A stretch of 57,527 nt of DNA from an uncultured Mycoplasmatota bacterium (GTDB lineage Bacteria > Bacillota_I > Bacilli_A > RF39 > UBA660). Numbering within the stretch: the stretch's first letter is position 1; every line of letters starts with the position of its first letter. This document shows positions 15,789-56,949 of the stretch, piece by piece. The notes under the pieces were generated by a model. The model had not been told where the DNA came from. It worked only from the letters and a program-made list of their open reading frames with translations, and did not search any database. The translations under genes were made by a program, and so were the position numbers. The stretch is taken from assembly GCA_946497955.1 (NCBI GenBank), contig CAMMMH010000006.1, positions 1 through 57,527 on the forward strand. The letters are read 5' to 3'.

Positions 15789-15840
15789 TTGAACCACTTT
15801 CCATTTCTAATTTCATTTTTGAAGTTTTATCTAATTATAT

Positions 15841-24874: not shown

Positions 24875-25910
24875 TTATTTATTAGGGCTAACTAATATCT
24901 TAACTGCTCCATCATTACCACTAGTTAATCTAAGATAAGCATTTTGTACTTCATCATAACTTACAATATCATCAACAAACTTCATAACTTCTATTTGTTT
25001 ATTGCTAATTAAATCAAGACAAGTTGCAAATTCTTCTTTAGTATAGGCAATAGCACCTTTTACAGTTAATTCATTCATAACAGCAACAACAGTTGGAATA
25101 CTAATAGGTCCAGTTGCTACGCCTACTAATACAACTACTCCACCTGGTCTAACTGTAACAAGTGATGATGTAACTGCACTAGCATTACCACAACACTCTA
25201 TTACTATATCAAAGCCTCCATTAGTATCAGAGATTACTTCATTAAGCATATTTTCATCAGTTGCATTGTAATATTTATCAGCAACACCAAGGCTTACTGC
25301 TTTCTCTCCTCTTTTGAGATTAGTTTCACTGACTGCAACAAAACTAGCTCCTTCTTTTTTAGCAAACATGGCACTTAAAAGTCCAATAATTCCTCCACCA
25401 ATTACTAAGACTTTAGAGCCTACTTTAACATCAGCAAGATGAATTCCATGTAGAGCAACAGCAGTAGGTTCAACCATAGATGCTTCTTCATCACTAACAT
25501 TATCTGGTACTTTTAAAACCATATCACTTCTTACTTTAATCTTTTCTGTCAAAGCTCCAGGATTATCTAAAGAAAGTCCTACAGCATGGGTCCAAGGTAC
25601 TTTTACAGTACTGGGGATTACCACTTAAACAAGCAGGACAATTACCACATGGAGAAATAGGTAAAGCCGTAACTCTATCACCTACTTTTAAATCAGTTCT
25701 GTTACCTGGATTAATTACTTCTCCACAAAACTCATGCCCCATTACTAATCCTACAGGTTCCCCCATCTCAAAATAATGTAAATCAGAGCCACATATACCA
25801 GCTTTTAATATTTTAATAACAACTTTCTCATTATCAATAACTGGTTCTTCTATCTCTTTTAATTCAAATTCTCTTTTACCTTTTAATGCAACAGCACGCA
25901 TCTTAATCAC
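24875..25910 (-). pseudogene. Zn-dependent (MDR) alcohol/polyol dehydrogenase split by a +1 frameshift
   Basis: GICGSDLH, GHEFCG and CGNCPACLSG..C in one frame; EPTAVALH and GGGIIG in the other. Junction ACC-T-TGG near 25595. Confidence 0.85.
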
Positions 25911-39072: not shown

Positions 39073-42000
39073 CTATTCCACACTTTCTCTAACTAATCCA
39101 TTCCAACGATATCTTTTAATACTTACAGTATCTGCTGCCTGAGGCTTAATAAGTTCACATATTGAAATATCTTTTATTTCTTTATAATCACACCATAATG
39201 CTTGACTTGTTAAGATATAATCTAAATCAAAACTTGCAAGGATTGCAAACATTTCTTCAATATTAACTTCATCTACACCTGCAAAGGCTTCATCTAAAGC
39301 GATTAATCTAGGAGATGAAGGTGCTGCACTATCTAATTTAGCATAGATACTTGCAAATAATGGAACATACATAGTCTTAGCTTTCTCTCCTCCACTAAAG
39401 ACAGAAAATATCTTATCAGTTAATTCTCGTTTTTGATTACCATCTTTTTTATAAAAGAGTTTAAAAGTAAACCAATTACGATAATCTAAAATATTAAAAA
39501 TCATTTGGAAGTACGTTATATTATTAGTAAGCATAGACTCTTCTTCTCTTTTTATCTTAGATCTAAAATGCTTAATTAATCTATTAGTATCTTCAGGCTT
39601 TATAAAATTACTTGGCATCATAAATATCTCTACTAAATCTTTAGTATCCATTTCTTCTAGTGTCTCTCCACTTTTAGGTTTCCAATCCAAGTAAAAAGAT
39701 AAATTACTATTTTGTTGTTTTATTTCCATAATATTATTAATCTTTTTAACCCAATCTCTTGCTTCTATTATTTTCTCTTTAATCTTAGTCCCAATAGTTC
39801 TAAGTAAAATATCTTCAAACAAATGTCTATCTTGTTCATTAAGATAAATCTTATCTGCCTCATAACTTTCTAATAAAGCATTAGAAAGTTCATAGATATT
39901 TAACTTCTTACCTTGATAACTAGTTAAAACATCTTGTCTTTTCGCATCGTTATATATGTTAATAACTCTTGTTCTATCAGATACTTTATCACTATAATAA
40001 TTAATTAAATTATCTCTTTCATTAAATAAAACTACATCTTGAATATTATACTCTAATAATTCCTGACGATATTCATTAAAAGAACGGTAATAGTTCATAG
40101 TAACATCTTTCAAATCTTTAGTTTTAGCATCATTATTTCTTAAAAAGTTCTTAATAGTTTTAAAGTCTACTTCTAAATCTTTAACAACATAACCTAAATC
40201 TAGTTCTTCTTTTAAAATATTAGATAGTATTTCTAAAAAAATCTCTTCTTCTTTTTTCTGTTCTTCTAAAGACTTAAGTTGTTCTTCTTCTCCTTTAAAG
40301 CTCTGTTCTAAAACACCTAATCTCTTTGATAAATTAGCACTCTTAAAAGGATAATCTTCAATAGTCTTTACAATTTTCTCTATTTTTTTACTAAGTTCAA
40401 GATACTCTTTAGTATTAAGAATCTTTAAAATAGTATTAAGTTCTATTTCTCGTTTTTTCTTATCATTAACTAAACTAGATATAGTAGCATACACTTCATC
40501 ATGATTAGTAGTTAAATCATCTAATCTTTCTTTATTAGTCATTAATAATTCCTTTTTCTGATTTAATTTATCATAAAGAGCATTTAACTCTTTAGTAGTA
40601 TCTAAAATATCTCTAATTACAACACTAGCTTTCTCATAAGTTACAAGGTTAAGAGGAATATTACTTCGATATTGCTCTAATTCTTTAATAACTTCTTCAA
40701 TTTGTTGTTGATACTTTCTAATTTCCTCTTCAAGTTCCTTTTCTTTATTATTAATAAAATCAAGTTCTAAATCTGTTTCTTTAATCTTAGCTGTAATTTC
40801 TTCTAATATTCTATTACTAGGAAATAATTTACTTTCATTATTTAAAGTATTTATAGAAGTATCTAATGTATCTAATTCAAGTTCTTTTTTTCTAATAACT
40901 TCTTTAATAGCATCAATCTTCTCTTCCTCTTCTTTTATAAGTAATTGATGTTCTTCTTTTCTTTTTAAAACTCCTATATATTTACTATTATAATCACCTT
41001 TAATATTACCTTTAATAAAGTCAAAGTTATAATTATTTTCATTAATACTAATAACATCACTATCACTAGTACTAATAGATTCTAATATTGAAGTAATAAA
41101 CTCATTACTAAAAACTTCATTAGGATATGCTTTTAAATATTTAGTCAAGTTATCTTTCTTTTTACTACTTTTCTTAAAGTAAGAAATATTCATATTTTCT
41201 ATCTTTCTTAAGTCTTCATCTCTAAATATCTTAGTATTTAAAATCCCTGATGAATATAGCACTTCTTCTAATTTATTTTTAGTATCATCATCTATTCCTT
41301 CTTTAAATTCTACTACTTGATAAAGTGCAGCATAAGGAATATTTTCTTTATCTAAATAATCTATTGTCTTTCTAGTTAAATCATCTTCTTCTAGTTTTAT
41401 CTCTTCCATTTCTAATAATTCTTTTAATAATAACTCTTCTTTACTTAACTTATCTTTCTCAGTTAAAAGTTCAGTTTTCTTAAAAGATACTTCTTCTAGT
41501 AATTTACTATACTTAATCTTATATATTTCTTCATACTTCTCTTTAGATTTTAAATAACCTTCACTACTATATTCATCTAAATAACTAGCAATTTCCTTCA
41601 TATCATCACTTAATAAAATAAGAAATTTATTATTAGTTCTAATATTATTTAATGAAATAAAGAATAGTTCAAGTTCATTATCTAGTTCTTGATAAAAACC
41701 ATCTCTTATCTTTTCTTTTTCTAAATAATCTGTTTTTAATTTTTCATATTCATTAGACTTAATATTTTGACTCTCTAAAAGATTTCCTTTTCTTATAAGT
41801 AGTTCTTTAGTCTTTTCTATTTCCTCTTTCTTAAAATTTATCTTTTCAATAATATAACTAACTTGAGTTTTCTCTTTTATAAAAGGAATTAAATCTTTTA
41901 ATTCATCAAAACTAATCTCATCTCCTAAATCACTTAAGTTAGTGATTAAATTAGTTATTTCTTTATCAAGGTTAGTAATATCATCTTCATTATCGTTTAT

Positions 42001-43110
42001 TAAAGAAGTTATCTCACTCATCTTCTGTTTCAAATTATCAATTACTTCTTCTTCTTTAACAAGTCTTTCTTTAAGTATCTCCAACTCATTATCAAGTTCT
42101 ACTTTTCTTTTACTTTTTTCTTCTAAATCAGTATTGTTTAAATGTTCTTTCTCCTCTTTAGCAGTATTAAATTCATCTAATAGTACTACCTCTTCTTCTT
42201 TTAGTCTAGTAATCTCTTCTTCTAAACTAGTAATAGCATTAGTTTTCTCAGTAATTTTAACCTTTATATTTTCAAGAGCTTGGTACTCTTTATAATAATT
42301 AGTCGCTTTAGCAAGTAATACTGCTTCGTTATAATTTTTAAAGACTTTAGTAAAGTTAGAAAGAATATCAATGTTATTTTTTAACTCATTAATCTTTTCT
42401 TTAGTAGCATTTAAATTTTCAATAGTATCAGATAAAGGTCTTAAAGTCTCATCTGATAAAGGTGGTAAAACTTCATTTAATACTTCCATTAATTTAGTAG
42501 GCTTATACTCTTTAGATAATTTTGGACTCCTAATTTGTAAGATAATATTGATAAATTCATCAAAAGTTTCTATATTTCTAAATTTAAATAGATTATCATT
42601 AACTAACTTTTTATATTCTTTAGCAGTTTCTACTAAATTATTAGAAATACCTAAAGCACTTCTTAACTCTAATTTTGTTAAAGGCGTCTTAGTAAAACCA
42701 TCTTTTGTCTTATATAAGAAGAAATCTTTTCCTACTCTTCTACCATCTTTTAAGATAAAACCAAAGAAGTCAGTAGGCTTACCCCTTCTCGCTCTAAGTC
42801 CCATACCAATAGTAATATATCTATCTTCTAAACCATTATAAAACTCCATATATAAATAACCAGTAGAATCATCTTTTTCATTATTTTCTCCAAGTAAATA
42901 ATATTCTATATGTTTGTCAGTAGAACCAAAAGTATCTAATCTTTTAGGAGATTTATTACCATCTAATATTAAGGGAATAAATGATTGCATAGTAACAGAC
43001 TTTCCTGATCCATTTTGTCCTCTAAGTAAAAGTTTACCATCATAAAAATTAAATACTTCATCATCATATAACCAAAAGTTTATAAGTCCCATTCTTGTAG
43101 GTTTAAACAT
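39073..43110 (-). CDS. jetC: Wadjet type II JetC SMC-like ATPase (TIGR02680)
   Basis: RMGLINFWLY, LLLRGQNGSGKS Walker A, long coiled coils, LDYRNWF, FSGGEK signature, LIALDEAFAGVD Walker B. Confidence 0.92.
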   Translation of the reverse strand: MFKPTRMGLINFWLYDDEVFNFYDGKLLLRGQNGSGKSVTMQSFIPLILDGNKSPKRLDTFGSTDKHIEYYLLGENNEKDDSTGYLYMEFYNGLEDRYITIGMGLRARRGKPTDFFGFILKDGRRVGKDFFLYKTKDGFTKTPLTKLELRSALGISNNLVETAKEYKKLVNDNLFKFRNIETFDEFINIILQIRSPKLSKEYKPTKLMEVLNEVLPPLSDETLRPLSDTIENLNATKEKINELKNNIDILSNFTKVFKNYNEAVLLAKATNYYKEYQALENIKVKITEKTNAITSLEEEITRLKEEEVVLLDEFNTAKEEKEHLNNTDLEEKSKRKVELDNELEILKERLVKEEEVIDNLKQKMSEITSLINDNEDDITNLDKEITNLITNLSDLGDEISFDELKDLIPFIKEKTQVSYIIEKINFKKEEIEKTKELLIRKGNLLESQNIKSNEYEKLKTDYLEKEKIRDGFYQELDNELELFFISLNNIRTNNKFLILLSDDMKEIASYLDEYSSEGYLKSKEKYEEIYKIKYSKLLEEVSFKKTELLTEKDKLSKEELLLKELLEMEEIKLEEDDLTRKTIDYLDKENIPYAALYQVVEFKEGIDDDTKNKLEEVLYSSGILNTKIFRDEDLRKIENMNISYFKKSSKKKDNLTKYLKAYPNEVFSNEFITSILESISTSDSDVISINENNYNFDFIKGNIKGDYNSKYIGVLKRKEEHQLLIKEEEEKIDAIKEVIRKKELELDTLDTSINTLNNESKLFPSNRILEEITAKIKETDLELDFINNKEKELEEEIRKYQQQIEEVIKELEQYRSNIPLNLVTYEKASVVIRDILDTTKELNALYDKLNQKKELLMTNKERLDDLTTNHDEVYATISSLVNDKKKREIELNTILKILNTKEYLELSKKIEKIVKTIEDYPFKSANLSKRLGVLEQSFKGEEEQLKSLEEQKKEEEIFLEILSNILKEELDLGYVVKDLEVDFKTIKNFLRNNDAKTKDLKDVTMNYYRSFNEYRQELLEYNIQDVVLFNERDNLINYYSDKVSDRTRVINIYNDAKRQDVLTSYQGKKLNIYELSNALLESYEADKIYLNEQDRHLFEDILLRTIGTKIKEKIIEARDWVKKINNIMEIKQQNSNLSFYLDWKPKSGETLEEMDTKDLVEIFMMPSNFIKPEDTNRLIKHFRSKIKREEESMLTNNITYFQMIFNILDYRNWFTFKLFYKKDGNQKRELTDKIFSVFSGGEKAKTMYVPLFASIYAKLDSAAPSSPRLIALDEAFAGVDEVNIEEMFAILASFDLDYILTSQALWCDYKEIKDISICELIKPQAADTVSIKRYRWNGLVRESVE

Positions 43111-44281
43111 CTTCTTCACCTCCAAATAAATCCATCTGTTTTGTATTATCTTTTATAAGTTTAGCATTAAACCTAGCGATAGTTGGTAATACTAAATAAG
43201 TATTATCCTCTTCTTTTAAGAAAGAATACTCTATCATATAATTTACTACTTCATCAAAGAATTTCTGTAAAGATAAATTAATATACTGTTTACTTAAGTA
43301 TTCTTTATTATTAGTCTTAATGTCTTTAATAATCATCTCTAAACTTTCTTTTTTTATTCGTCCTATCTCTTTATCATCAAGAGATATTTCTTTATTTTTA
43401 ATCATTTCATAAAGTTTAGTATTTATCATTAAAACTATATCTGTAATTTTCTTATTATTAGGAAAATTATCTTTAGAATTACTTGTTTCATATTCATAAA
43501 GAAAAGCCATATTCTTTGTAACTTCAATTTCGAAGTTCAAATTAGAAAACTCATTTTCTAAATAACCACGCATCTTCTTAATATAATCAATTTCTGCTTC
43601 TGTTAAGTTATAAGAAAAAACAGCAGGAGTAAATAAAAGATTACGATAAACTTTATATCTTCTAACATCACCTTTTTCTAAAGTTTGATATTTCCATTCA
43701 TCATTTAAGAAATCATTAGTATCTTCTATTTCAAAAATATCGTTTGTAAATAATCGCATTACATAGTTAGCAAGACCTGTTACTTCATATAAAGCTTCAG
43801 CATTTTGATCATCTTTAAAGCTTATCTTTTCAGCATCTTTAACCTTTATTACTGATATTTCTGTTAAGAAATCTATTACTCTAACTAAACTTTGTCTATC
43901 ACTTCTTAAATTCCAATCTGGTATTGTCTCAAGATTTAAGGTAACCGCGGTATTTTTAACATAATCTATTAGTGATGATAAAACAAAGACTTCACCTCTA
44001 GTTTTATCTTCTAAAAATAATAGAATTATACACAAAATGACATAGTCTTGTTTTGAATTAAAGTTATCTATTCCTAGATTATCAACTCTACTACTAGGAA
44101 TCTTTTCAAGTTTAACAAATCTATCATGAATAATTAATTTACTACCAAGAGTCTTAGTAACAAAGTCTTTAATAATATTTTGTTTTCTTTTAACGTCATA
44201 GTATAAGTCAGGATTATCTTCTTTTAAAATCCAAAAGTTAGTTAAAAGTTCTCTTATTTCATTTTCAATTGATTCCATCAT
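43103..44281 (-). CDS. jetB: Wadjet type II JetB (TIGR02678; DUF2398)
   Basis: LLTNFWI, KLEKIP, DWNLRSDRQSLVRV, YRNLLFTPAV; operon position. Confidence 0.85.
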   Translation of the reverse strand: MMESIENEIRELLTNFWILKEDNPDLYYDVKRKQNIIKDFVTKTLGSKLIIHDRFVKLEKIPSSRVDNLGIDNFNSKQDYVILCIILLFLEDKTRGEVFVLSSLIDYVKNTAVTLNLETIPDWNLRSDRQSLVRVIDFLTEISVIKVKDAEKISFKDDQNAEALYEVTGLANYVMRLFTNDIFEIEDTNDFLNDEWKYQTLEKGDVRRYKVYRNLLFTPAVFSYNLTEAEIDYIKKMRGYLENEFSNLNFEIEVTKNMAFLYEYETSNSKDNFPNNKKITDIVLMINTKLYEMIKNKEISLDDKEIGRIKKESLEMIIKDIKTNNKEYLSKQYINLSLQKFFDEVVNYMIEYSFLKEEDNTYLVLPTIARFNAKLIKDNTKQMDLFGGEEDV

Positions 44282-45749
44282 AACCCCCTTCAAAAATAAT
44301 ACTTAAACTAGGTAAAGTAAATATTCCATCATCACTAATAATTCTACAAGTAGTATTACTATCATTAAAATTAACTTTATAGTTAAGTCCAAATAAAGGT
44401 TCTTTAAAATAATTAGTACTATTTCCTGCTTTACTTATTAGATTTAAAAGATATCCTCTTTCTTCTTTAGTTAATCTAACTTCATCTTTTAACTCTACTA
44501 CTTTAGTTTGAACGAACTTCTTTAACATTTCTTTTTTTCTAGCTTCTTCCTTCTCATATAACTCTAATATTTCTTTTTTCTTACTAGTTTTATCTACTAT
44601 AGTACTATGACGTTTTTCTGCTCTAATTTTTTTATCATTAGGTAATACTGATATTATTGTTGGCTTTACTTCATAAGAATTAACTAAAGAGTCAGTATCT
44701 TTTTTACTAATACCTTTAAAGTGTTTAACTCTATAAATTCCAAAGACAGCATTAGATAAATCTCTTACTTCAGTTAGATTAGTTTTTTTATCAAAAAGTT
44801 TACAAATATACTTATACTCTTCTTTACGTTTTATCATATTACCATGAAGTTCTATGAGACTACTAGCACATTTAGTAATTCTACTGATAAGATTACTAGT
44901 AACTTCTAAAAGTCTATCACCTTCACTCTTTTCTTTAGTATTAACAAACCATTTATAAATACTTCTCCATTTACCCAAATTAACTTGATTAAATTTCTGA
45001 TAATTAAAGTCTAAAGCTATTTTAGGAATACCTCTTTCTGCTTCTTCTAATCTTTTAATAAGATTATCTTGAAAGTTATTATCCATACTCTTTAAAATTT
45101 CTCTTATAACTTCAGCTTGATTTAAGTACCCTGTTATAAAATCTTTTAAGTACTGAATCATTTTATTTTTATATTCTAGAAAGACTGTACTTTGTAAAAG
45201 TTCTTCAGTTTTTGACTCTTGAAACTTCTTTAAAAAGTCTTGATAGTTTCTATTAATATCACTAAATTCATTAGTAATTCTCTCCCAAGTATCAAGTAAT
45301 TCTTCGTTAGATAGAGAATCTAATTTTTTTATCTTTTTTAATAAGTCTCTTAATACTTCAAATCTTTTAGGAGATAAAGATGCAACCTTTACTTCCATTT
45401 CTTCAAGTTCAATAGTCATACGTTCTATAGCGATAGCATAATCTGTTAATTGATATCTATATTTTTTATATTTAAAGTCGGCAAGCGAGTTAATATTATT
45501 AACATCTTGAACAGTAGTTAAACTTAAATTATCTACTAAAAACTCTAAATCTCGTTCTAAATCTTCCATAGTATAGTTATCTATTTTATCCTTTAATTCA
45601 TCATAGATATCTTCTTTAAAAAGCCAATTCTCTGCTTCTTCATATTTATGATAGAAAAAACGCATAATAGGTCTATAACGATAAGTATTTTCTTGTGATA
45701 AATATTTAGTCTCCGTAATAGCTTTTTGTAGTACTTCAAAATTATCCAT
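44265..45749 (-). CDS. jetA: Wadjet type II JetA (TIGR02677; DUF2397)
   Basis: ETKYLSQENTYRYRPIMRFFY, YQLTDY, FLEYKNKMIQYLKDF, W..IYKWF; first gene of the operon. Confidence 0.88.
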   Translation of the reverse strand: MDNFEVLQKAITETKYLSQENTYRYRPIMRFFYHKYEEAENWLFKEDIYDELKDKIDNYTMEDLERDLEFLVDNLSLTTVQDVNNINSLADFKYKKYRYQLTDYAIAIERMTIELEEMEVKVASLSPKRFEVLRDLLKKIKKLDSLSNEELLDTWERITNEFSDINRNYQDFLKKFQESKTEELLQSTVFLEYKNKMIQYLKDFITGYLNQAEVIREILKSMDNNFQDNLIKRLEEAERGIPKIALDFNYQKFNQVNLGKWRSIYKWFVNTKEKSEGDRLLEVTSNLISRITKCASSLIELHGNMIKRKEEYKYICKLFDKKTNLTEVRDLSNAVFGIYRVKHFKGISKKDTDSLVNSYEVKPTIISVLPNDKKIRAEKRHSTIVDKTSKKKEILELYEKEEARKKEMLKKFVQTKVVELKDEVRLTKEERGYLLNLISKAGNSTNYFKEPLFGLNYKVNFNDSNTTCRIISDDGIFTLPSLSIIFEGGYDGIN

Positions 45750-46050
45750 AAACACTCCTTTATGGCTATTATTCTATCATATGTTCTAGTTAATGTATAG
45801 TTATTTTTTTGCATTTTCCAAATGTTACCAAAAAAAAGAAAACTATTAGTATAGACTTCTCAAAGTAATTATTATAATACTTGTAATAATTCATATCTCG
45901 TAGCATGTTTATTACATAATTGAACACTTAAGTCTAAAATCAGCTCTTTATAAGATTACTGACTATTATTCATATCTTCCTTTTTTATAGCATTAAAAAT
46001 ATTATTATACATTTTTTCTATTCTTTATTATTATATTTACTGATATTGTC

Positions 46051-48194: not shown

Positions 48195-51011
48195 TTATTC
48201 CTCACTCTTTTTGTTTTCAAGATTATATTTAGTTTCTTTGATTATTTTATCTTTATCTTTTTTATTTTTTTCATCTTGATATAGTATTTTAAATCTCACA
48301 ATTTCCTTATTAACAAATTCTTTAACTTTTTTATCTTTTGGTTTTAATTTTTTAAAAAAAGCGTATTTATCATGAAAAGAATTTGCAATACCATATTCTC
48401 CCTTAACAACTCCAGTATTAAATACTAGACATTCAATCTTGTTTAATAATTCATCATTAGAGGCAATCTTAGATATTATATATTCATATATTTCCCAACA
48501 AGATATTGATACGTCATATAATCTACATAAATCAATTACTTTTACGTAATTATCATAATTGTCATTTTCTTTTAAATACTTAAGTATATCGCTACATAAT
48601 TCATTGTTATATTCGCCAAGTAAATAATATATATAGTTAGATATTTTATAATAATTATTTTCAGTCAATAATTCTATACACAATTTTAAATTATTATATC
48701 TTTCTTCTTTATAATTATTACAAGTTGTTAGATTAACATATCTAAAAAAATTATATAAATTACTATTTGGATTATCTGTTATTTTTTCTTTAAGCAATAG
48801 CCTTAAATCTTCTGGATATTTTTCAAACAAATCATTTAAGAAAAACTCATCTAACCTATTAAATTCACTATACCTAAAATTTTCTAATAATATACAAACA
48901 TCAGCATAGTTATATTCTTCTATAATCATTTTCTCAGTATTAGGATTATATAATACTTCTCCAATAATTCCTTTAGTAATACTATTATACTTTTTTATTT
49001 TATTTAGTAAATAATTTTTATATTCTTTATTATTTACTAAATCAACATTATTAGAAATAAGCTTTAATATCTTAATTTCTAAATTCTCATTTTTATTATT
49101 TTCAACAAATTCTATTAAATTATTTATAATATTCAAATCTATATTACCTGTTTGTAGCATAGCTTGAATAATTTTATCAGCTTTTATGTCATTATCAATT
49201 ATATATTCATAATTTTTATCTTGTCTAATTACCCCAAGTAAGATAAATTCATTCCATTTAGTCTTTATTATTAATTTTCCATAATTTTCTAGTGTTCCAA
49301 TGCCAATTAAAAATCTTCCTGCATTAAAAAAATTCGAATTACTAATTTTTTCATTATCCAATATATCCAATATAGCTATAATCTCTTTAACATTACTCTT
49401 TTTAAAATTTTTGGTATATTCATTTAAATAATTAGTTCTAAATTCTTCATTTTCAGAATCATCAGCACATGGTATTTCATTAATAAAAAAATTGAATAAC
49501 ATTGCATATAAATTCTGAATTTTATCATTTTTTAGTTTTTTATAAAATTTGCTATCTTTTAATTTTGTATTTTTCCAAGCACATACAGATTTATATAGTT
49601 CGTTTTTACTATACACATCAATTTCATCATAATTATTATTGAAAAAATCATATATTGGATTATAGTCAAATATGTTTGTGTTTCTCTCCAACTCACAATT
49701 TATGTTAATTAAAGCATTTAAAGCTTCCTTCGAATGTTGATTAAAAAATATATCTAATATCACTTCTATTGCCTTATATATTTTATTTTTATAATTTTCA
49801 CTAGGGCTTACTTTATTATTTACAAAAGATATCTTATCCATGCCGACTTCTTCACAATAATTATAATTTATATTACAAAAATATTCAGCCAACTTTATTC
49901 TTACATATACATCTAAATCTTTTTCAAAAATTAATAAATAAGCAATTTCGTGAATATTATAATCAGCATAGCCTCTGTTAGAATCAGCTTTATCAGAAAC
50001 TATTAGATTCTCTATAAATTTATCAAACTTTTCTAACATATTATTATTAGTTGATATTTTATATAAAGTAGAAATTATTCTTTTAAAATCACTAAGCCAT
50101 AAATATTTATAGCTTTGTAAAAATTCTAACATTTTACTAAATTTATATTCATATGTATCATAATTCAAGAATTTAGCTGTTTCAATAGGTAATTCACTAA
50201 ATTTTTTTACTATTGAATAAATTATACCTGAATCATAAATTTCTTTGTACTTTTCTTCGTATTCATTAATTAAGGGAATAACTTCTATCATTTTATTAAT
50301 TATTTCTTCCAGCTCATTTAAAGATTTAACATTCTGCAACTTTTTACCGAAATCATCTCCTAATAATATCGCTATATTTTCTGCCCCCTTTTTAATGCTA
50401 GATACACGTTTATTAATAAACTCTAGGCTTGCCATTATCTTCAAAGTTTCTTTTCTTACATCTTCAAAAGTAGACTTAATTCTATTATATTCTTTGCTAT
50501 CCTTTGATTGTAATTCATCTACATCCTTATAAATTATATTATGCCCAAATTCATTCATGGCATGAGCCAACAATGTTGTTAATTGTATTTCACATAATAA
50601 ACCTTTAAACTTATTAAAATCATTTTTTAACGAAATTGTTATGTTAATTCCATCATATTCCATAATATCTTTTGATGGTCTATATGATTCAACATTAAAT
50701 TCATCGTAGATAATATTGTTAAATTTTTTTAATTCATCTTCATCATAAAAAATAATTCTTACGCCACTAAGGTCGTTTAGTTTTTTTATATTTTTGCAAA
50801 TGCCATTTATAATTTTCTCTGTTAACTTGTTTTCCAACGAATCATAAGATTTAACTCGACTATTTAAGGACTGATATTTTATACCATTTTCAATAAGAAT
50901 ATTTTTTACCTTATTCTCAATATAAGATGTAAATTCAACATAGATTAACTGAGATGATAAATATTCTTTTAACATTTGTTCTTTTACTTGTTTAAGTTTT
51001 TCAGATGTCAT
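48195..51011 (-). CDS. RelA/SpoT synthetase-like domain protein with a ~750-aa helical C-terminal extension
   Basis: RVKSYDSLENK, NDLSGVRII and CEIQLTTLLAHAMNEFGHNIIYK in aa ~50-165; no HD, TGS or ACT domain recognisable; AAGGAGG RBS. Confidence 0.85.
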   Translation of the reverse strand: MTSEKLKQVKEQMLKEYLSSQLIYVEFTSYIENKVKNILIENGIKYQSLNSRVKSYDSLENKLTEKIINGICKNIKKLNDLSGVRIIFYDEDELKKFNNIIYDEFNVESYRPSKDIMEYDGINITISLKNDFNKFKGLLCEIQLTTLLAHAMNEFGHNIIYKDVDELQSKDSKEYNRIKSTFEDVRKETLKIMASLEFINKRVSSIKKGAENIAILLGDDFGKKLQNVKSLNELEEIINKMIEVIPLINEYEEKYKEIYDSGIIYSIVKKFSELPIETAKFLNYDTYEYKFSKMLEFLQSYKYLWLSDFKRIISTLYKISTNNNMLEKFDKFIENLIVSDKADSNRGYADYNIHEIAYLLIFEKDLDVYVRIKLAEYFCNINYNYCEEVGMDKISFVNNKVSPSENYKNKIYKAIEVILDIFFNQHSKEALNALININCELERNTNIFDYNPIYDFFNNNYDEIDVYSKNELYKSVCAWKNTKLKDSKFYKKLKNDKIQNLYAMLFNFFINEIPCADDSENEEFRTNYLNEYTKNFKKSNVKEIIAILDILDNEKISNSNFFNAGRFLIGIGTLENYGKLIIKTKWNEFILLGVIRQDKNYEYIIDNDIKADKIIQAMLQTGNIDLNIINNLIEFVENNKNENLEIKILKLISNNVDLVNNKEYKNYLLNKIKKYNSITKGIIGEVLYNPNTEKMIIEEYNYADVCILLENFRYSEFNRLDEFFLNDLFEKYPEDLRLLLKEKITDNPNSNLYNFFRYVNLTTCNNYKEERYNNLKLCIELLTENNYYKISNYIYYLLGEYNNELCSDILKYLKENDNYDNYVKVIDLCRLYDVSISCWEIYEYIISKIASNDELLNKIECLVFNTGVVKGEYGIANSFHDKYAFFKKLKPKDKKVKEFVNKEIVRFKILYQDEKNKKDKDKIIKETKYNLENKKSEE

Positions 51012-51242
51012 TTAGAATCCTCCTTATAAAAGAAAAATTTAATATACCTAATGAAAAAGTTGTTTATTACTATGACTGCAAATATAGGAAATTATAACAC
51101 TTTAGAAATATATAGACAAGCAAGTATCATAGTGATTTAATATCAAAAAGTATTAAAACTTATGTAATATTCAAACTGAAGTAATAAGGTAATTACAACT
51201 TGACTAAAAAAATCTAATATAAAAATAAAGTGAATATTTAAT

Positions 51243-52331
51243 TTACTTCTTTCTTTGTGCATAAAATCTTACACTCGGATATTCTTTTTTCATTTTTACA
51301 ATATCATAGTATGTATACACATAAAATTTTGGAAATTTTTCTTTTACTTCAGTAACCATGTACAATACATATGAGTCTTTATATTTTTCCATAAACTTTA
51401 TCTCTCCACTAGACATATTAAAGATTGGCTTAGTTTCAGATGTTGACTTTACTTCTACATATTTCTTTTCTCCATCTACAATATATTCCATATCATATGG
51501 AGATTGTGGAAAGTCTAAGCTAGTATGATATAACTCATTATCATCATCTAACTTTTCCCTTAATAATTTATATATAAACTCTTCTCCTAGCCTTCCATTT
51601 TCTAATCTAGATTTATTGATTAATTCATAAGTTATAGTTGTAGATTCTTGAATATCTGGATTTTGTCCAACCACTACAACATAGTCATTATCTACCACTT
51701 TATTAGGATCTATAATTAATTTTTTTCCTACACCTTTTTTCCTTCTAAAGACAGTTGATAGAGGTATTCCATTTGGTCCTATTAAAGAGGTTATAAAGTT
51801 TAAAGTCTTAGTATCTTGGTAATACTCAAACCCTCTAACTACAAATGCAAATCCTCCATTTTGTTCCATAATTGAATTTAAAACAGCCTTATTGTCAATA
51901 TTATAACCATCTGCTTTAAAACTAAAAGTTATTGGATAATGAAGTTTTATTCTTCCTAAATGTGTATTATTAACTTTACTTCCATTTAACTTAGTTATAA
52001 CATGATCTGTTTCTCTTTTAAAATACATAGCAAATTGAAATTTAGTATTTAATTTTATTCCATCCAATAAGAAATTACTAAATATAAACACATTATCAAT
52101 ACTATTTCCAGAATGTGAAGAACTTTGACATTTATGAATTAGCATGGCCGGTGGATTAATAACATTACAATTATATTTTTTTAATTCTAATATATCTTTT
52201 CTCCATTTATTTTCATCTTTGCTTTGATTTAGTGGTGTTGAGACTGTCGCAGTTTGACCTTTTGCATAATCATTATATGTTCCTAAAAATAAAGATTTTT
52301 CATCAATTTTAAATCTAATTTTATTTTTCAT
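51243..52331 (-). CDS. DUF3883/NO VEIN-like PD-(D/E)XK endonuclease, probable cognate restriction enzyme
   Basis: GRLGEEFIY...PYDM...YVEVKST...FNMSSGE; overlaps the methyltransferase stop. Confidence 0.82.
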   Translation of the reverse strand: MKNKIRFKIDEKSLFLGTYNDYAKGQTATVSTPLNQSKDENKWRKDILELKKYNCNVINPPAMLIHKCQSSSHSGNSIDNVFIFSNFLLDGIKLNTKFQFAMYFKRETDHVITKLNGSKVNNTHLGRIKLHYPITFSFKADGYNIDNKAVLNSIMEQNGGFAFVVRGFEYYQDTKTLNFITSLIGPNGIPLSTVFRRKKGVGKKLIIDPNKVVDNDYVVVVGQNPDIQESTTITYELINKSRLENGRLGEEFIYKLLREKLDDDNELYHTSLDFPQSPYDMEYIVDGEKKYVEVKSTSETKPIFNMSSGEIKFMEKYKDSYVLYMVTEVKEKFPKFYVYTYYDIVKMKKEYPSVRFYAQRKK

Positions 52332-53427
52332 TACTACCTCCTGTATTTAAATTCAACCAATCTTCGTCAAAATCCTTAAGTTGCTTAAATATAAATTCTA
52401 ATAATATTGTAACTAAATTAACATCCCAACCATTACCAGCTCTTTTAGATAATTGCGTATATGATTGATTTCCAAATACAATATCAACTTTTCTCCCTTT
52501 GATATTTAAGCCTTCAAGCCCCATCAATCTAAATTGCTCAGTAACTGACATTTTTCTTACAACCTCTTTATTTCTATTAGGTTCTATAACTCTTAAGCTA
52601 TTATGTTCAGGCATAGTTATTGTAATAGAATATCCGTCTGTTTTGATTTTTTTATTATATACATCAAAACACAAAGCTTTTTTTACTTTAAAACTATCAA
52701 TTTTATGTTTTTCTTTTAAGTGCTCTATTTGCTTATCCGACAAATACATCTCTTTTGGAACGTATTCTTTAGGATCTAAAAAATCTGCCATTAATAATCC
52801 TGTTATATTTTTAGGGGGTTCCATCGAAAAGTTTTTTGGTAAACCTCCAAGCTTTGCAAACATCCAAACCCTTTCGCGATTTTGAGGAATACCATAATCT
52901 TTACTATTTAATAAAGCAACCCTTAATGGAGATTCATCTTTATCATTTTTATCTGCAACATACCCCATCTCTCTTAGCATATCTTCCATTTGTTTTCTAG
53001 TTGTCTGAAACTTTTTTGAAAAAAATCCTTTAACATTTTCAAGCAATATATATCTTGGCTTTTTTGCATCACATATTCTCATAATATGTTGAAATAAAGT
53101 TCCTCTTCCATAAGGATCATCTATGCCTTTTTGCATTCCTGCAGTTGAAAAAGGCTGACATGGAAAACCACCCATAAAAATATCAAAATCAGGAACATCA
53201 TCAGGATTTAGTTTAGTAATATCTCCAAAATTTTTAATATTTTTCCCATTTTTATCTTTATGATTTAAATTGTATAGCTCACACGCATATTTATCAATTT
53301 CAGAATATCCAATTACTTCAAATAAAAAATCAGGATATTTTTCTTTTAATCTGTCTAAAGCAAAATGTCCACCGCCATATCCTGCAAAGCCTTCAAAAAC
53401 CCTTAATACTTTTTTGTTTTTGTTCAC
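52321..53427 (-). CDS. DNA (cytosine-5)-methyltransferase
   Basis: FAGYGG (I), GFPCQPFS (IV), LENV (VI), QNRERVW (VIII), AGNGW (X); likely GTG start at 53427 after AGGAGG. Confidence 0.96.
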   Translation of the reverse strand: MNKNKKVLRVFEGFAGYGGGHFALDRLKEKYPDFLFEVIGYSEIDKYACELYNLNHKDKNGKNIKNFGDITKLNPDDVPDFDIFMGGFPCQPFSTAGMQKGIDDPYGRGTLFQHIMRICDAKKPRYILLENVKGFFSKKFQTTRKQMEDMLREMGYVADKNDKDESPLRVALLNSKDYGIPQNRERVWMFAKLGGLPKNFSMEPPKNITGLLMADFLDPKEYVPKEMYLSDKQIEHLKEKHKIDSFKVKKALCFDVYNKKIKTDGYSITITMPEHNSLRVIEPNRNKEVVRKMSVTEQFRLMGLEGLNIKGRKVDIVFGNQSYTQLSKRAGNGWDVNLVTILLEFIFKQLKDFDEDWLNLNTGGSNEK

Positions 53428-53632
53428 AATGTTGCCTCCTAACTTTGGTAACTTAATAATCATATTTTTTATTATATGTTTATTAGAATACCTCTTACAT
53501 TTATATTATAGCATGTATATTTTAAGATGTAAATCAATGAAAAAACATAGTTTTCATTTTATACCAAAATTTACATGGCTAAAACTTAATTATATCAAAC
53601 TCATTATATAATTAGTAAAAAATTATTTAGTA

Positions 53633-54013
53633 TTATTCAAAATGACTATTTCTGCACAATTTATCTACATCACTGACATCTGGAATAGGGGGTAATTTTT
53701 CAATGCCATATGGATAAAGTTTTCTAATCTCTTTAACATTTTGCAAAAATTTATTACTAGACCATAAATTAATAAAATCTTTATCACTCAACATTGAAAC
53801 TGCTGTTTTGCCATCATATATAATGCCATTATATATATTCATCTTTAGTTTACTATTTTTACAATGCAAATGAGGAAAAGATGGATTAATATCAGAATCG
53901 CCTTTTTTAAAGTACCAGTTCCTTTTGCTTAATTTAAATGGTATTGGGCCAAAGAAAAGTGGCTCACTAAAAAACGAGAGCAATTGCCAAAGTATTAGTT
54001 TTAAAATGTACAT
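53633..54013 (-). CDS. Hypothetical protein (126 aa) with a PSFPHLH motif
   Basis: ORF inside the defence island; start uncertain. Confidence 0.5.
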   Translation of the reverse strand: MYILKLILWQLLSFFSEPLFFGPIPFKLSKRNWYFKKGDSDINPSFPHLHCKNSKLKMNIYNGIIYDGKTAVSMLSDKDFINLWSSNKFLQNVKEIRKLYPYGIEKLPPIPDVSDVDKLCRNSHFE

Positions 54014-54087
54014 ATATTCAAATCACTACTTTCAAAATTATATTATTATATTTTTTATGAACATATTTTCAGAATCAAAAAACACTA

Positions 54088-54924
54088 CTAAAATAACTCT
54101 TTCACAATTAAATCTTCAGAATGTAAATTATTATTTTTTCCTAATAATAAATTCTCATAAAACTTAATTAAATAACCTTTATCTTCTTTAATGCCTAAAT
54201 CATTATTAAAATAATTACTTCTAACTAATGCATTTCTAAAATATACTGATTTATCTTTAAATAAAGTATTATCTACGTTATAACCTAAATTAATTAAATA
54301 CTTTTCTATAAATAAAGCTGTAGTTCTAGTATTACCTTCTCTAAAAGGATGTACTTGCCATATACTAGAAGAAAAATCAGTAATATTTTTAATCACGTCT
54401 ACAATAGACATATCTTTATAGTTTTTATCTTTTTCTAAACTTATGTCATATTCTAAAGATTCTTTTAAAGTCTTATAATCTCCATAAGCTACAGAATCAT
54501 TATTTAATATTTTTTCATGTTTAGAAAAATTAATATCTCTAAACTCTCCTGCAAATTCATAAACATCTTGAAATAAATATTTATGAATATACTTTAAATA
54601 ATCTACTGATAACTCAAAATTATCTTTTTCTAATAACTCAACTATTCTCATAGATACAAAGTCACATTCTAATTCATTATGATTAATATTATTTTGTTTT
54701 GATTTTTCTACATAATACTCTTTTAGACTTTTCTCTACTTCTTCTATTGATAATTCTCCTAAAACATTCTTTTCTTTAATCTGTTCTAGATATTTAGATG
54801 GTTTTAAATTATCTACCTCTTGTAAACCAATAGCCATATCCCACTCTAATTGTTTAACATAGCCTTTAGGATTATCTATCTCATTATATTGATTTATACT
54901 AGAATCAAAATCTCTTTCACTCAC
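54088..54924 (-). CDS. Fic domain protein
   Basis: HPFREGNTRT Fic motif; N-terminal AIGLQEVDNL inhibitory-helix-like segment. Confidence 0.93.
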   Translation of the reverse strand: MSERDFDSSINQYNEIDNPKGYVKQLEWDMAIGLQEVDNLKPSKYLEQIKEKNVLGELSIEEVEKSLKEYYVEKSKQNNINHNELECDFVSMRIVELLEKDNFELSVDYLKYIHKYLFQDVYEFAGEFRDINFSKHEKILNNDSVAYGDYKTLKESLEYDISLEKDKNYKDMSIVDVIKNITDFSSSIWQVHPFREGNTRTTALFIEKYLINLGYNVDNTLFKDKSVYFRNALVRSNYFNNDLGIKEDKGYLIKFYENLLLGKNNNLHSEDLIVKELF

Positions 54925-55107: not shown

Positions 55108-55184
55108 TGGGGCGGTATAAGGGAATCGAACCCTTGCATACTGGTGCCACAAACCAGCGTGTTAACCACTTCACCAATACCGCC
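55108..55184 (-). tRNA. tRNA-His (GTG)
   Basis: GGCGGTATTGGTGAAGTGGTTAACACGCTGGTTTGTGGCACCAGTATGCAAGGGTTCGATTCCCTTATACCGCCCCA: G-1, anticodon GTG (55148-55150), T-loop TTCGATT, encoded CCA. Confidence 0.97.
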
Positions 55185-55247
55185 ATCTGAAATACATACC
55201 TATTATAACCATAAAACTATTAAATAAGCAAGTTTTTTTTGCAATAT

Positions 55248-56949
55248 CAGCAAAAAAGAGTAAATTTCTTCGCAAAGAAAATCTGATATAATTATTACTA
55301 CAGAATAAGAAAGGATGTAGTAATGAAAAAAAGAAGTAAAAAGGAAGAGGAAAAATTACAGGAAGAAATAAAGAAATATGCAAATGAACCAAGAAGTGTA
55401 AGAAGAAAAAAAGAAAGAGAATTAAAGAAAGAATATAAAGATAAATCTATTACAATTAAATCAGGTAAGAAATTCAAGAAAACTAAAGAACCTCTTACTA
55501 GAAAACAAAGAAGAGAACTTTTAAAAGATAAAAATCTATTAAAGGAAGTTTTAAAGATAATTAGAAAATATTTCCCACAGTTAGAAAACTTATTTAGTAA
55601 ATTAACTGATAAAAGACATAAAAGTTATATTACTTATAAGATGAGAACTATTATAATGACTAGATTATTATCTTTAATTTGCGGTATTACTACCATGAAA
55701 GGTATTAATCAAAAATTTAATACTGATGAAGCTATTAAAAATTTATCTTCTATTTGTAACCAAGAACTTAAAGAAGTTCCTGATTGGCAAACTATTCAAG
55801 ATGTTATTGAAACTCTTTCTATAGAAGAAATAGAAGATATTAGGAAATATATGGTAAAGGCTTTAATTAGAAGTAAAATGTTTGATAGATTTAGATATAA
55901 AGGTGCTATTCAAGTATTAGTAGATGCTACTGGTCTATCTAGTCATGATTATAACTTAAATGGTAATTGTATTTCTAGAACTAAAAGTGGCATTATTAAA
56001 TACTATAAATATGTCTTAGAAGCTAAAATTGTTTTTGGTAACATTGTTATTAGTATTGATTCTGAATGGATAGAAAATAAGGAATTAAATAATGAAAACG
56101 AGAAACAAGACTGTGAAGTTAATGCTTTTAAAAGAATGGCTCCAAGACTTAAGAAAAATTATCCTAAAATGAAATTTATTATTACAGGGGATGCTTTATA
56201 TGCTACTACTCCTATGATTGATATTTGTAAAGATAATAAGTGGTATTATATCTTTAATCTTAAGAAAGATAGACTTAAAAATGTCTATGAACAATTTACG
56301 GATAATGTTAACTACTTTAATGAAACTAATAAAGAAAACTATTATTTATCTAAAAATGTAGAGTTTAATGATAATGTTTTTGATGTGTTTAAATATATAG
56401 AAGTTACTAATAATAAAACTACTACTTTTCACTATGTTAGCAATCTTAATGTTAAAGATAGTAATATAGAAGAAATTGTTAATATGGGTAGACGTAGATG
56501 GAAGATAGAAAATGAAGGCTTTAATCAACAAAAAAATGGGACTTTTTGTATTTCCCATATGAGTAGTAGACATATTGTTGGTTTAAAGGTCCAATATTAT
56601 TTAATACAGATCGCCCATATTATAAGACAACTATTAGAATATGGTTCTATTATAATAAAAGAGATTCGTGATATAACAAAAAAGGAAATAAGCGACAAAA
56701 TTTCCACCATGCTTACTTCCAACAAAATCTCAAATTTTAATTGTTTGGATTTGAATTTTCAATTAAGATTTGATGGTTAAAGTGTAACATATTTCAGGGG
56801 AGTTGAAAACTAGTGGTGGAAATTTTTACAGTGTATTTGACACTTCTTTTTTGCATGGTTTATTTATGCGAAGAAAAAGATTTATGTTATTTTTCAATCT
56901 TTTGCACATAAATCTTTTCTTTTTTAATTAAATTTGCTCTTTTTTACTG
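55248..56949 (+). mobile_element. Intact insertion sequence (DDE; IS4-superfamily/ISAs1- or ISNCY-like), 1702 bp
   Basis: TIRs cagcaaaaaagagtaaattt (55248-55267) and aaatttgctcttttttactg (56930-56949), 18/20 match; perfect TSD TGCAATAT at 55240-55247 and 56950-56957. Confidence 0.92.
55323..56780 (+). CDS. DDE transposase
   Basis: LVDATG, QDCEVNAFKR, TGDALY, GRRRWKIENEGFNQQKN. Confidence 0.92.
   Translation: MKKRSKKEEEKLQEEIKKYANEPRSVRRKKERELKKEYKDKSITIKSGKKFKKTKEPLTRKQRRELLKDKNLLKEVLKIIRKYFPQLENLFSKLTDKRHKSYITYKMRTIIMTRLLSLICGITTMKGINQKFNTDEAIKNLSSICNQELKEVPDWQTIQDVIETLSIEEIEDIRKYMVKALIRSKMFDRFRYKGAIQVLVDATGLSSHDYNLNGNCISRTKSGIIKYYKYVLEAKIVFGNIVISIDSEWIENKELNNENEKQDCEVNAFKRMAPRLKKNYPKMKFIITGDALYATTPMIDICKDNKWYYIFNLKKDRLKNVYEQFTDNVNYFNETNKENYYLSKNVEFNDNVFDVFKYIEVTNNKTTTFHYVSNLNVKDSNIEEIVNMGRRRWKIENEGFNQQKNGTFCISHMSSRHIVGLKVQYYLIQIAHIIRQLLEYGSIIIKEIRDITKKEISDKISTMLTSNKISNFNCLDLNFQLRFDG

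Follow-up and report, generated by a model that had tools for sequence, protein, structure and literature searches.

The principle of fusing a toxic enzyme to a sensor is already known. CapRel(SJ46), a fused toxic small alarmone synthetase (toxSAS), senses a phage capsid protein and pyrophosphorylates tRNA (PMC9712102, PMC11782079), and DSR2 joins a SIR2 NADase to a HEAT-repeat domain that binds a phage tail tube protein (PMC11263360, PMC11087589); in PANGU type I, a nucleoid-associated protein (NAP) works with the GRel toxSAS Pag1B, which makes pppGpp upon activation, showing that alarmone synthesis itself can be the abortive output (bioRxiv 10.64898/2026.04.06.716658). Here we describe a gene on the minus strand of a 57,527-nucleotide (nt) stretch of DNA, called the window below, from an uncultured Mycoplasmatota bacterium (GenBank assembly GCA_946497955.1, contig CAMMMH010000006.1); its product, protein P0001, joins an N-terminal RelA/SpoT-type domain to a predicted alpha-solenoid. 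Because the enzyme appears intact, the shared scaffold evolves faster, the contexts are islands and mobile elements, and the occurrence is patchy, we read P0001 as an immune sensor-effector, that is, a single-gene protein of abortive-infection type, and give this reading, mechanism included, a probability of roughly 55%; the broader statement that the gene serves conflict or defence of some kind is safer, and we regard it as likely.

The comparison with CapRel is the closest. Both proteins carry an N-terminal RelA/SpoT-type pyrophosphokinase followed by a C-terminal part proposed to restrain and to sense, and they have the catalytic fold, the donor-site residues, and the G-loop tyrosine in common. 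CapRel is a protein of ~370 amino acids (aa) with a pseudo-Zn-finger antitoxin domain and a YXXY plug, whereas P0001, at 938 aa, has a solenoid of ~720 aa instead; the C terminus of P0001 matches that of CapRel neither in sequence nor in fold, a search of the Protein Data Bank (PDB) gave no sequence match to CapRel, and structurally CapRel aligns to the enzyme core and one C-terminal helix only. DSR2 resembles P0001 in being a single gene for ~1000 aa, with an N-terminal enzyme and a long helical repeat, but its effector is SIR2 and that of P0001 is RelA/SpoT, with no SIR2 domain in a Pfam search; no DSR2 chain occurs among the structural matches listed for either model of P0001, a list of generic repeat-protein matches from which a relative could be missing. 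PANGU differs in having two genes, its sensor being a separate NAP and its effector a ~340-aa protein with a DNA-mimic domain, and no NAP gene lies beside P0001. A defense protein combining RelA/SpoT with a helical repeat of ~700 aa was not found described in the literature, supplementary candidate tables lying outside that search, and a PADLOC v2 scan (E<=0.01), a check proposed in a preliminary description of this DNA, returned no model matching P0001, nor did NCBIfam. Both the combination of RelA/SpoT effector and scaffold and the scaffold family itself thus appear undescribed. The gene and the parts of its product are as follows.

48195..51011 (-): gene for the RelA/SpoT-domain and alpha-solenoid fusion protein P0001, 938 aa, stop codon included
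50364..51011 (-): N-terminal effector domain, residues 1-216, predicted small alarmone synthetase (SAS)-like fold from an AlphaFold2 (AF2) model and structural alignment
50523..50861 (-): Pfam RelA_SpoT domain PF04607, residues 51-163, profile match
50826..50858 (-): R52-x-K54-x3-S58-x3-K62, ATP adenine-stacking Arg and triphosphate ligands, by alignment to YwaC
50757..50774 (-): D80-L-S-G83-V-R85, Mg2+-binding catalytic Asp and second adenine-stacking Arg, by alignment to YwaC
50643..50657 (-): G-loop Y119-D-G-I-N123, acceptor-stacking Tyr retained and the His of YxxxH replaced by Asn, by alignment to YwaC
50526..50591 (-): E141-I-Q143-L-T145-T...H157-x3-Y161-K162, catalytic Glu, adenine Gln, and ribose His, by alignment to YwaC
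48333..50363 (-): alpha-solenoid (HEAT/ARM-like) in predicted models, residues 217-893, putative sensor or regulatory module
48390..48416 (-): TGVVKGEYG, T866-G874, the most conserved scaffold motif in the alignments
48198..48332 (-): C-terminal long helix, residues 894-938, predicted by the model to fold back onto the enzyme domain

The preliminary description had been made from the DNA letters and their translations, and much of what it said of the protein holds. The 938-aa open reading frame (ORF) that it reported is uninterrupted, with an ATG start and zero internal stops (translation table 11), and its end-to-end conservation in 52 clusters at 38-96% identity indicates that it is a real gene and not a chance ORF. 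RelA_SpoT PF04607 is the sole Pfam domain (44.1 bits against a cut-off of 27, E 2.9e-11), in agreement with the statement that HD, TGS, and ACT domains are missing; the long RelA/SpoT homologs (RSH; Rel, RelA, and SpoT), in contrast, carry HD, TGS, and ACT/RRM. All of the sequence motifs that it quoted were found as given: R52-V-K54-S-Y-D-S58-L-E-N-K62, D80-L-S-G83-V-R85, Y119-D-G-I-N123, E141-I-Q143-L-T-T146, and H150-A-M-N-E-F-G-H157. In a HMMER comparison, the motifs of P0001 align one for one with those of Bacillus subtilis YwaC/RelP (6fgk, E 1.8e-4), whose counterparts read SRVKSFESIVNKL, DIAGVRII, GYRSLH, and EIQIRT...EHKIYYK, so that RVKSYDSLENK is paired with RVKSFESIVNK, DLSGVR with DIAGVR, YDGIN with YRSLH, and EIQLTT...GHNIIYK with EIQIRT...EHKIYYK. 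Together with 2be3 (E 0.015), this was the only PDB sequence match of P0001; the profile of the family alignment (A1) gave 0 matches to PDB sequences at E<=1.

The functions of these residues are described for FaRel2 (R64/K66/S70/K74; PMC11782079) and SaRelP (R78/K80/S84/K88; PMC5794853), where the site comprises adenine-stacking Args, triphosphate ligands, two Mg2+ carboxylates, a Gln, a ribose His, and an acceptor-stacking Tyr (PMC11782079, PMC5794853). Residue conservation was scored across 58 RelA-type representatives of the wide family and 10 further rows with other architectures. All 58 RelA-type representatives have R52, K54, D80, R85, E141, Q143, H157, and Y161 unchanged, and 56 retain the G-loop Tyr; the N-domain is probably an active enzyme because its donor and catalytic residues are invariant, and the donor half of the reaction is under strong purifying selection. 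By the curated cut-off, the predicted SAS alpha/beta fold, and the donor and catalytic residues, P0001 belongs to the PF04607 synthetase superfamily, but it departs from the canonical (p)ppGpp synthetase signature, with EIQLTT for EIQIRT and YDGIN for GYxSxH. The preliminary description had seen in these changes the altered motifs of an unusual protein. Both are present; EIQ-x-x-T is, however, the norm of the family, the Arg of EIQIRT being missing in 58/58 (position 145 is T, Q, H, V, or S), while the His of YxxxH (position 123) is kept in 45/58, the remainder having N (11/58) or K (2/58), and the Asn of P0001 is a subclade trait. The family-wide loss of the EIQIRT Arg suggests a noncanonical acceptor.

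The predicted structure of the N-domain, which closes with a long connecting helix (residues 172-216 in the AF2 model), is SAS-like. Residues ~6-206 superpose on RelQ 5dec_A with Z 17.9 and a root-mean-square deviation (rmsd) of 2.7 over 181 aa (VIA-align), followed by YwaC 6fgk_A (Z 17.5), RelP 6ewz_A (Z 17.3), CapRel 7ztb_A (Z 13.3, rmsd 3.6, 179 aa), Tas1 6ox6_A (Z 11.8), and FaRel 8pu1_B (Z 8.1); Foldseek agrees on an SAS-type fold (TMt 0.71-0.79). RelQ and RelP (SAS1/SAS2) are therefore the best structural matches (Z 17.3-17.9) as well as the only PDB sequence matches, and they have the same ATP site; they differ in being ~210-aa homotetrameric housekeeping enzymes with EIQIRT and GYxSxH, whereas P0001 is without that Arg and that His, has a 720-aa extension, and is encoded by an accessory island gene. 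The toxSASs FaRel, FaRel2, PhRel, and PhRel2 have an adjacent antitoxin gene, while the neighbors of P0001 are GmrSD and NOV_C genes. The net charge of the N-domain is +1, and this, together with its greater likeness to RelQ and RelP than to the tRNA-modifying toxSASs, tilts the expectation slightly toward a nucleotide acceptor.

The AF2 model of P0001 (22 homologs) has a mean predicted local distance difference test (pLDDT) score of 86.2, and the ~720 aa past the enzyme are almost all helical, apart from a single beta-hairpin at residues 382-400; the long helical C terminus of the preliminary description is hence predicted to be an alpha-solenoid. Folded alone with 32 diverse sequences, residues 560-938 reach pLDDT 90.6. 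Residues 206-600 gave generic TOG/HEAT/ARM/PUF-type matches (Z 8-10), which are uninformative for helical repeats, and look-alikes of residues 211-938 in the ESM Atlas stayed within noise (best score 0.79); a DSR2-like or other specific fold for the solenoid was dropped, the matches being to repeat proteins in general. Pairwise identity within the close family is 62% in the N-domain and 45% in the scaffold, with a minimum of 37% at residues 561-720. Within the scaffold, TGVVxGEYG is as conserved as the catalytic motif and is common to RelA-fused, DUF4365-fused, and effector-less architectures, G871 being kept in 57/58 RelA-type rows and 10/10 other rows. When CapRel and 8vx3 are aligned structurally with the full model, the alignments reach residues 917-920, so that the last helix lies against the enzyme domain in the model. 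A two-chain prediction of residues 1-216 with 856-938 gave a median interaction score (ipSAE) of 0.55, against 0.01 for the best of three controls, with three runs agreeing in all contacts and a pLDDT of at least 70 in the partner; in calibration, the ipSAE mark was reached by 58/80 solved complexes and 2/110 mismatched pairs, and at values of 0.60 or below only 7 of the 80 solved complexes passed, as did both mismatches. These models hint at a closed, ring-like architecture and weakly suggest auto-inhibition by the scaffold.

P0001 had been presented as a lone altered protein, a picture that database searches overturned. A word-indexed search found 55 proteins, of which 52, at 38-96% identity, make up a close family with nearly all members full length (~930-945 aa) and three are remote matches of 965-980 aa, homologous end to end to the close family; in hhalign, the A1 alignment matched a Peribacillus protein at 99.8% over 857 columns. 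When a profile of the close and remote groups was run against 1.84 billion representatives (50% identity clustering), 8087 matches were obtained at E<=1e-3 and 603 representatives at E<=1e-30; the best 150 listed are nearly all 940-1030 aa long and cover profile positions ~5-935. P0001 belongs to this shared-scaffold family by an end-to-end profile match that includes TGVVxGEYG and the C-terminal helix. The 11 genomic loci of the close family come from uncultured gut Bacilli, Mollicutes-like metagenome-assembled genomes (MAGs), and "Clostridium sp. CAG:628"; members with names are found in Bacillus cereus, B. mycoides, Priestia, Sutcliffiella, Peribacillus, and Halobacillus, further members in MAGs of Thermodesulfobacteriota, Nitrospirae, Candidatus Nomurabacteria, and Alphaproteobacteria, and plasmid-borne full-length copies in Sphingobium (conjugative) and Rhizobium. 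Public annotation calls them RelA/SpoT domain-containing or hypothetical. The PADLOC model PDC-S33 (PDLC04999, 349 positions) matches the N-domain of 44/56 RelA-type members (38/50 in one set and 6/6 in another), a count that leaves out P0001, which itself has no match at E<=0.01; the matches span model positions ~30-175, some to ~280, and thus the enzyme domain only, and no mention of PDC-S33 was found in the literature searched.

That the C-terminal scaffold is a separable module is indicated by its reuse with other effectors. Several strong matches among the 150 listed (E 1e-83 to 1e-99) cover only profile positions ~218-933, and 10 such variants were tested: four, of 1028-1068 aa, carry an N-terminal DUF4365 (P0155, P0168, P0174, and P0200), two of these also matching a PADLOC model for a restriction endonuclease associated with prokaryotic Argonaute (pAgo), and six, of 743-871 aa, begin with Met and have no effector domain, three of them with a common N terminus. 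At two further loci (L102:5793-9214 and L103:5655-9106), a PIN-domain gene (~333-347 aa) is followed after a 2-nt gap by a scaffold-only gene of ~800 aa. One pair is on a Pseudanabaena plasmid, the scaffold protein of which matches the A2 alignment at 99.7% over 612 columns in hhalign, TGVVTGEYG included; the other is on a Legionella adelaidensis replicon with an adjoining site-specific integrase, and its scaffold gene was assigned by tblastn alone (E 2e-46). In locus L026, a DUF4365-scaffold gene (1047 aa, 4789-7932; hhalign 95.4% over 401 columns) lies 130 nt upstream of a RelA-scaffold gene (8063-11008); these tandem paralogs share a strand and come after genes for an Eco57I-like methylase and a UvrD helicase. 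Immune sensor-effector proteins typically swap effectors, and a scaffold with several effectors follows that pattern.

A related arrangement is known from Olokun, in which the adaptin-like OloA and the PD-(D/E)xK nuclease OloB form a 2:2 complex (bioRxiv 10.1101/2025.07.10.664194); its helical scaffold and nuclease resemble the PIN and scaffold operons and DUF4365-scaffold fusions of the present family. The PADLOC OloA model matches 3/67 family members (P0168 at 5e-9, P0097 at 2e-8, and P0185 at 4e-6), but it also matches 5/14 unrelated control genomes, and the similarity may therefore be generic to repeat proteins. P0001 does not match OloA at E<=0.01 in PADLOC, nor at E<=1 within its own genome, and no neighbor of P0001 resembles the OloB nuclease of Olokun; OloA homology of the scaffold is not supported for P0001.

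In the mechanism that we infer for P0001, covering resting-state control, trigger, acceptor, toxicity, and protection, the N-domain would have the RelA/SpoT (small alarmone synthetase) fold and be active as an ATP-dependent pyrophosphokinase, around which the solenoid would wrap, with the C-terminal helix sitting on the enzyme domain and keeping the enzyme off. An infection cue, in the likeliest case a phage protein that the solenoid's variable middle would bind, would free the enzyme, which would then move pyrophosphate from ATP to an acceptor, and growth would be arrested ahead of phage maturation. If the enzyme is active, a purine nucleotide, giving a toxic alarmone, for instance (pp)pApp or (p)ppGpp, has about even chances of being the acceptor, tRNA's 3'-CCA end is a serious second candidate at about one chance in three, and other acceptors make up the rest. 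The single-gene sensor-effector of the preliminary description thus gains support for its modular design from the reuse of the scaffold, while its auto-inhibition and its noncanonical acceptor stay tentative proposals. A bolder version of the idea takes the solenoid for a new NTPase-free pattern-recognition module, not kin to DSR2 or Avs, that would bind a conserved phage protein and switch whichever effector it carries (a pyrophosphokinase, a PD-(D/E)xK-like nuclease, or a PIN RNase in trans), with the RelA effector using an acceptor novel for RSH enzymes; as a whole, we hold that combination to be doubtful.

The position of the gene in the window is in keeping with a defense role. Past metK, the genes run, in order, through a SEC-C protein, Wadjet, GmrSD, P0001, NOV_C, a C5 methylase, a 126-aa ORF, Fic, tRNA-His, and a transposase.

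34789-35811: metK, which the genes below follow
35866-37839 (-): 657-aa protein next to the island, with a C-terminal SEC-C metal-binding motif and no other Pfam match
37843-45755 (-): complete type II Wadjet, JetD-C-B-A (JetA2, JetB2, JetC2, and JetD2), from PADLOC, JetC2 at 1115 bits
46200..48038: gene with GmrSD_N and GmrSD_C domains (Pfam)
51019..51025 (-): Shine-Dalgarno sequence AAGGAGG, 7 nt ahead of the P0001 ATG
51091..51119 (-): promoter-like TTGTCT-17-TATAAT with a TG extension upstream of P0001, a consensus match only
51243..52331 (-): 362-aa protein with NOV_C as its sole domain, also matching the C terminus of PADLOC TmtA models
52321..53463 (-): C-5 cytosine methylase, overlapping the NOV_C gene by 11 nt
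53633-54924 (-) and 55108-56780: Fic-domain protein (PADLOC PDC-S72, 8e-82), upstream of the 126-aa ORF, which has no family match, then tRNA-His and DDE transposase

The gene has spacers of 156 nt to the GmrSD gene and 231 nt to the NOV_C gene, and TTTTTCTTTTATA, which is common to related loci, stands directly before its Shine-Dalgarno sequence; promoter-like sites in the region are no more frequent than expected by chance (79 against 87). Contigs of 309 and 408 nt from an RNA-library run lie on the P0001 gene, a weak hint only of its transcription, as such libraries may contain DNA. Where the preliminary description placed the gene between a type II restriction-modification (R-M) pair and a GmrSD-like nuclease, the GmrSD, methylase, and NOV_C neighbors are all there; NOV_C and the C5 methylase are probably a type II R-M pair whose nuclease is unusual, and the NOV_C protein may plausibly be its cognate restriction enzyme. 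It had also noted the lack of a small antitoxin gene, and indeed, in the window's flanks and those of 10 related loci, 98 small ORFs yielded no antitoxin-sized partner for P0001, those common between loci lying on both strands of a conserved noncoding block or being integrase fragments. tRNA-His and the DDE transposase probably mark the island edge. Beside other family members, SEC-C proteins of ~806 aa are found at L041:1398-3818 and L055:12675-15098; the PADLOC PDC-S12 and E2-type models match the motif of such proteins alone. The start of the window (1088-16994) looks like another mobile or accessory stretch, with the following features.

1088-8461 (-): 2457-aa ORF with an SNF2-type helicase core in its C-terminal third only
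9270-12663 (-): SpaA-repeat surface protein and sortase
13489-15214 (-): ParA/ParB pair
16002-16994 (-): RhuM-family gene

Elsewhere in the window are an IS66-family transposase fragment (23356-24174, minus strand) and, beside it, a zinc-type alcohol dehydrogenase (24875-25910, minus strand) that is apparently split into overlapping ADH_N and ADH_zinc_N ORFs.

The surroundings of relatives repeat this association, which the preliminary description had proposed for the window. In the close family, R-M or abortive infection (Abi)-type genes occur within 10 kb in 7/11 loci (L002, L005, L006, L007, L009, L010, and L011). For the distant family, a metagenome scan with the A4 alignment confirmed 216 loci, of which 80 were kept and 60 are nonredundant; context was read in the 25 that are flanked by 8 kb or more, from up to three ORFs on each side (133/137 scanned, four oversize ORFs omitted). 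R-M or dedicated defense domains are present in 13/25 (L024, L026, L028, L035, L041, L048, L050, L055, L057, L081, L082, L083, and L088), namely, Eco57I-type methylases, HsdR, type ISP, AlwI, NgoPII, GmrSD_N-HNH, ThsB-TIR, Piwi (pAgo), AAA_13, MrcB_N-NucS, Schlafen/AlbA_2, and PLD-SNF2 helicases. Three loci have DNA methylases only (L047, L056, and L064), and four have only a recombinase, relaxase, integrase, or ParAB (L058, L085, L101, and L080). In L024, L035, L055, and L088 (and L026), an SNF2-PLD helicase recurs as a module with an Eco57I/MmeI-like methylase, and variable genes (AAA_13 ATPase, Schlafen/AlbA_2, PLD, the RelA-scaffold gene, or PD-(D/E)xK) are inserted within it or come after it at very short gaps.

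Several observations weigh against P0001 as a sensor-effector of antiphage immunity. No defense or mobile gene was found nearby in 5/25 distant loci (L036, L062, L069, L079, and L092). Defense genes make up a few percent of genes in general, and the enrichment was judged against that general figure and not against the background rate of the same contigs. Viral collections are nearly without the family: IMG/VR holds one N-terminal fragment, no GenBank phage has a full-length copy, and phage carriage was dropped as an explanation, that fragment and one GenBank phage match of 17% coverage being all that was found. Residues 560-938 have no specific relative among solved structures (best Z 8.5, rmsd 14.5; none at E<=0.001 in Foldseek), so the role of sensor is drawn by analogy. 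TGVVxGEYG and the C-terminal helix are kept in nuclease-fused and effector-less forms, so they cannot be a RelA-specific inhibitor, and the low charge of the N-domain and its nearness to RelQ and RelP speak weakly against a tRNA acceptor.

PrrC and RloC are guards of neighboring R-M systems, and the gene might act in the same manner, its scaffold monitoring R-M or helicase-methylase proteins, or anti-restriction proteins, and firing the enzyme, in which case the system would be multigenic and not autonomous. The window gene, lying between GmrSD and the methylase pair, fits this idea, as do the loci where an R-M or R-M-type gene is directly upstream on the same strand (AlwI and methylases at 8 nt in L082; NgoPII, C5 methylase, and Vsr at 0 nt in L083; GmrSD_N-HNH at 12 nt in L050; an Eco57I-like methylase with a 4-nt overlap in L088). 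In L048, HsdR, the type I R subunit, lies just past a YgjP-like metallopeptidase that is 78 nt upstream; the SNF2-PLD helicase and Eco57I-like methylase flank the gene in 4/25 loci and the methylase alone in 5, with AAA_13 (L035 and L055) or Schlafen/AlbA_2 (L088) filling the slot between module and gene. However, the types of the neighboring systems vary from locus to locus, and a conserved partner gene was dropped as a candidate because, in the 260 flank ORFs of 36 loci, none recurs at more than 5 loci. Several loci have no adjoining R-M (L062 has housekeeping genes, L003 and L101 an integrase only), the window gene has its own promoter-like site, ribosome-binding site (RBS), and spacers on both sides, and, R-M genes being the commonest defense genes, adjacency in islands is expected by chance; we consider a guard unlikely.

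About equally improbable, in our view, is a selfish module for stabilization of, or competition between, integrative elements, in which P0001 would be a fused, restrained toxin and phage defense incidental at most. This explanation draws on the mobile elements around the family. A tyrosine integrase is convergent on the gene, and wedged against it, in 5/11 close loci (L002, L003, L004, L007, and L008), overlapping its 3' end by 4 nt in all of these except L007; L011 has an integrase remnant beside the scaffold-fusion gene, and the sequence of L001 ends 93 nt past the gene. Distant members lie beside serine recombinases, a relaxase, ParAB, or an integrase, and there are the Sphingobium and Rhizobium plasmids. 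Upstream of the gene, a noncoding block of ~230 nt (A6) is found in 8/11 loci (L001, L002, L003, L004, L007, L008, L010, and L011), conserved far above the gene itself, being mostly common to loci with ~40%-identical proteins. Its left part has an edge, CCCCCTGAA, with a hairpin and a T-run, and two direct GGGAAC repeats 11 nt apart; its right part has a CTGACA-17-TATAAT promoter, a short hairpin in the 5' untranslated region with compensatory changes (CTACAC/GTGTAG versus CTATAC/GTATAG), a T-run, and an RBS. The block may hold integrase arm sites and/or an attenuator. As a tRNA attachment site it was rejected, no tRNA adjoining the gene in 11/11 loci, and the flanks of the 5 loci examined have no att-like direct repeat. 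Defense genes are, though, common cargo of such elements, and there is overlap between the two readings; no integrase adjoins the window copy, which, like L005, lacks the upstream block, and effector swapping and a solenoid that diverges faster fit an arms race against a changing external target better than plain addiction.

The distribution of the gene bears on whether P0001 serves ordinary physiology. It was found in 0/60 other related genomes, a set that includes 36 from the same genus, and at full length in 1/400 genomes of a phylum sample, that one being the source genome of the window (1.72 Mb, 92% complete). Near-identical DNA (at least half of the sampled words) occurs in 17 runs from chicken-gut, dust, and unlabeled metagenomes; 10 studies account for the 19 runs with matching DNA, one of which may be where the window itself was derived. 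The source genome also encodes a 721-aa Rel (contig C3), a 217-aa SAS, and a third ORF with HD_4 and RelA_SpoT, and the domain of P0001 is the most divergent of the four (49.9 bits in a whole-genome profile search, against 86-141 for the others). RelA_SpoT proteins of ~350 aa that are related to the N-domain occur in 7/400 phylum-sample genomes (L014-L020; G115, G177, G179, G186, G306, G385, and G433), and in 6/13 genomes of one family; they have the canonical EIQIRT and a C-terminal extension of ~140 aa, and their assignment to PANGU type I was rejected, with lgt upstream in 4/7, AbiH in one, and EIQIRT kept.

A physiological stress sensor, that is, a long SAS that reads a metabolic or envelope signal and tunes (p)ppGpp with no link to phage or mobile DNA, would agree with the housekeeping enzymes RelQ and RelP as the closest solved structures and only PDB sequence matches, with the modest charge of the N-domain, and with source labels such as ppGpp synthetase or RelA/SpoT-type nucleotidyltransferase. 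Such a role is hard to reconcile with a gene found in none of 36 other genomes of its genus and at full length in only 1/400 of the phylum sample, in a genome that already has Rel and SAS, with nuclease-type effectors on the same scaffold elsewhere, with the island and integrase contexts, and with an EIQIRT Arg gone throughout the RelA-type representatives, and we consider it very improbable. Just as remote is an altered chemistry, in which ATP would be bound but the product would be a new signaling nucleotide or a protein or nucleic-acid modification, or the domain would be an ATP-sensing switch for the scaffold: the replaced EIQIRT Arg, the Asn at the YxxxH position in 11/58, and the low Pfam score would suit it, but conservation extends to the metal carboxylates, both stacking Args, the triphosphate Lys, the ribose His, and the G-loop Tyr, which, as described for FaRel2 and RelP, is the full requirement for pyrophosphate transfer (PMC11782079, PMC5794853).

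If the immune sensor-effector reading of P0001 is true, a widespread family spanning several phyla, from Bacillota, including culturable Bacillaceae, to Alphaproteobacteria, Thermodesulfobacteriota, Nitrospirae, and the candidate phyla radiation (CPR), would join the short list of RelA/SpoT-based antiphage systems. The members from Priestia, Peribacillus, and Sutcliffiella offer an easy entry for genetics in Bacillus subtilis. The family would also bring a new modular sensor scaffold, coupled in evolution to at least three unrelated effectors, and would make two questions testable: how large NTPase-free repeat domains recognize infection and how wide the acceptor range of toxic RelA/SpoT enzymes is.

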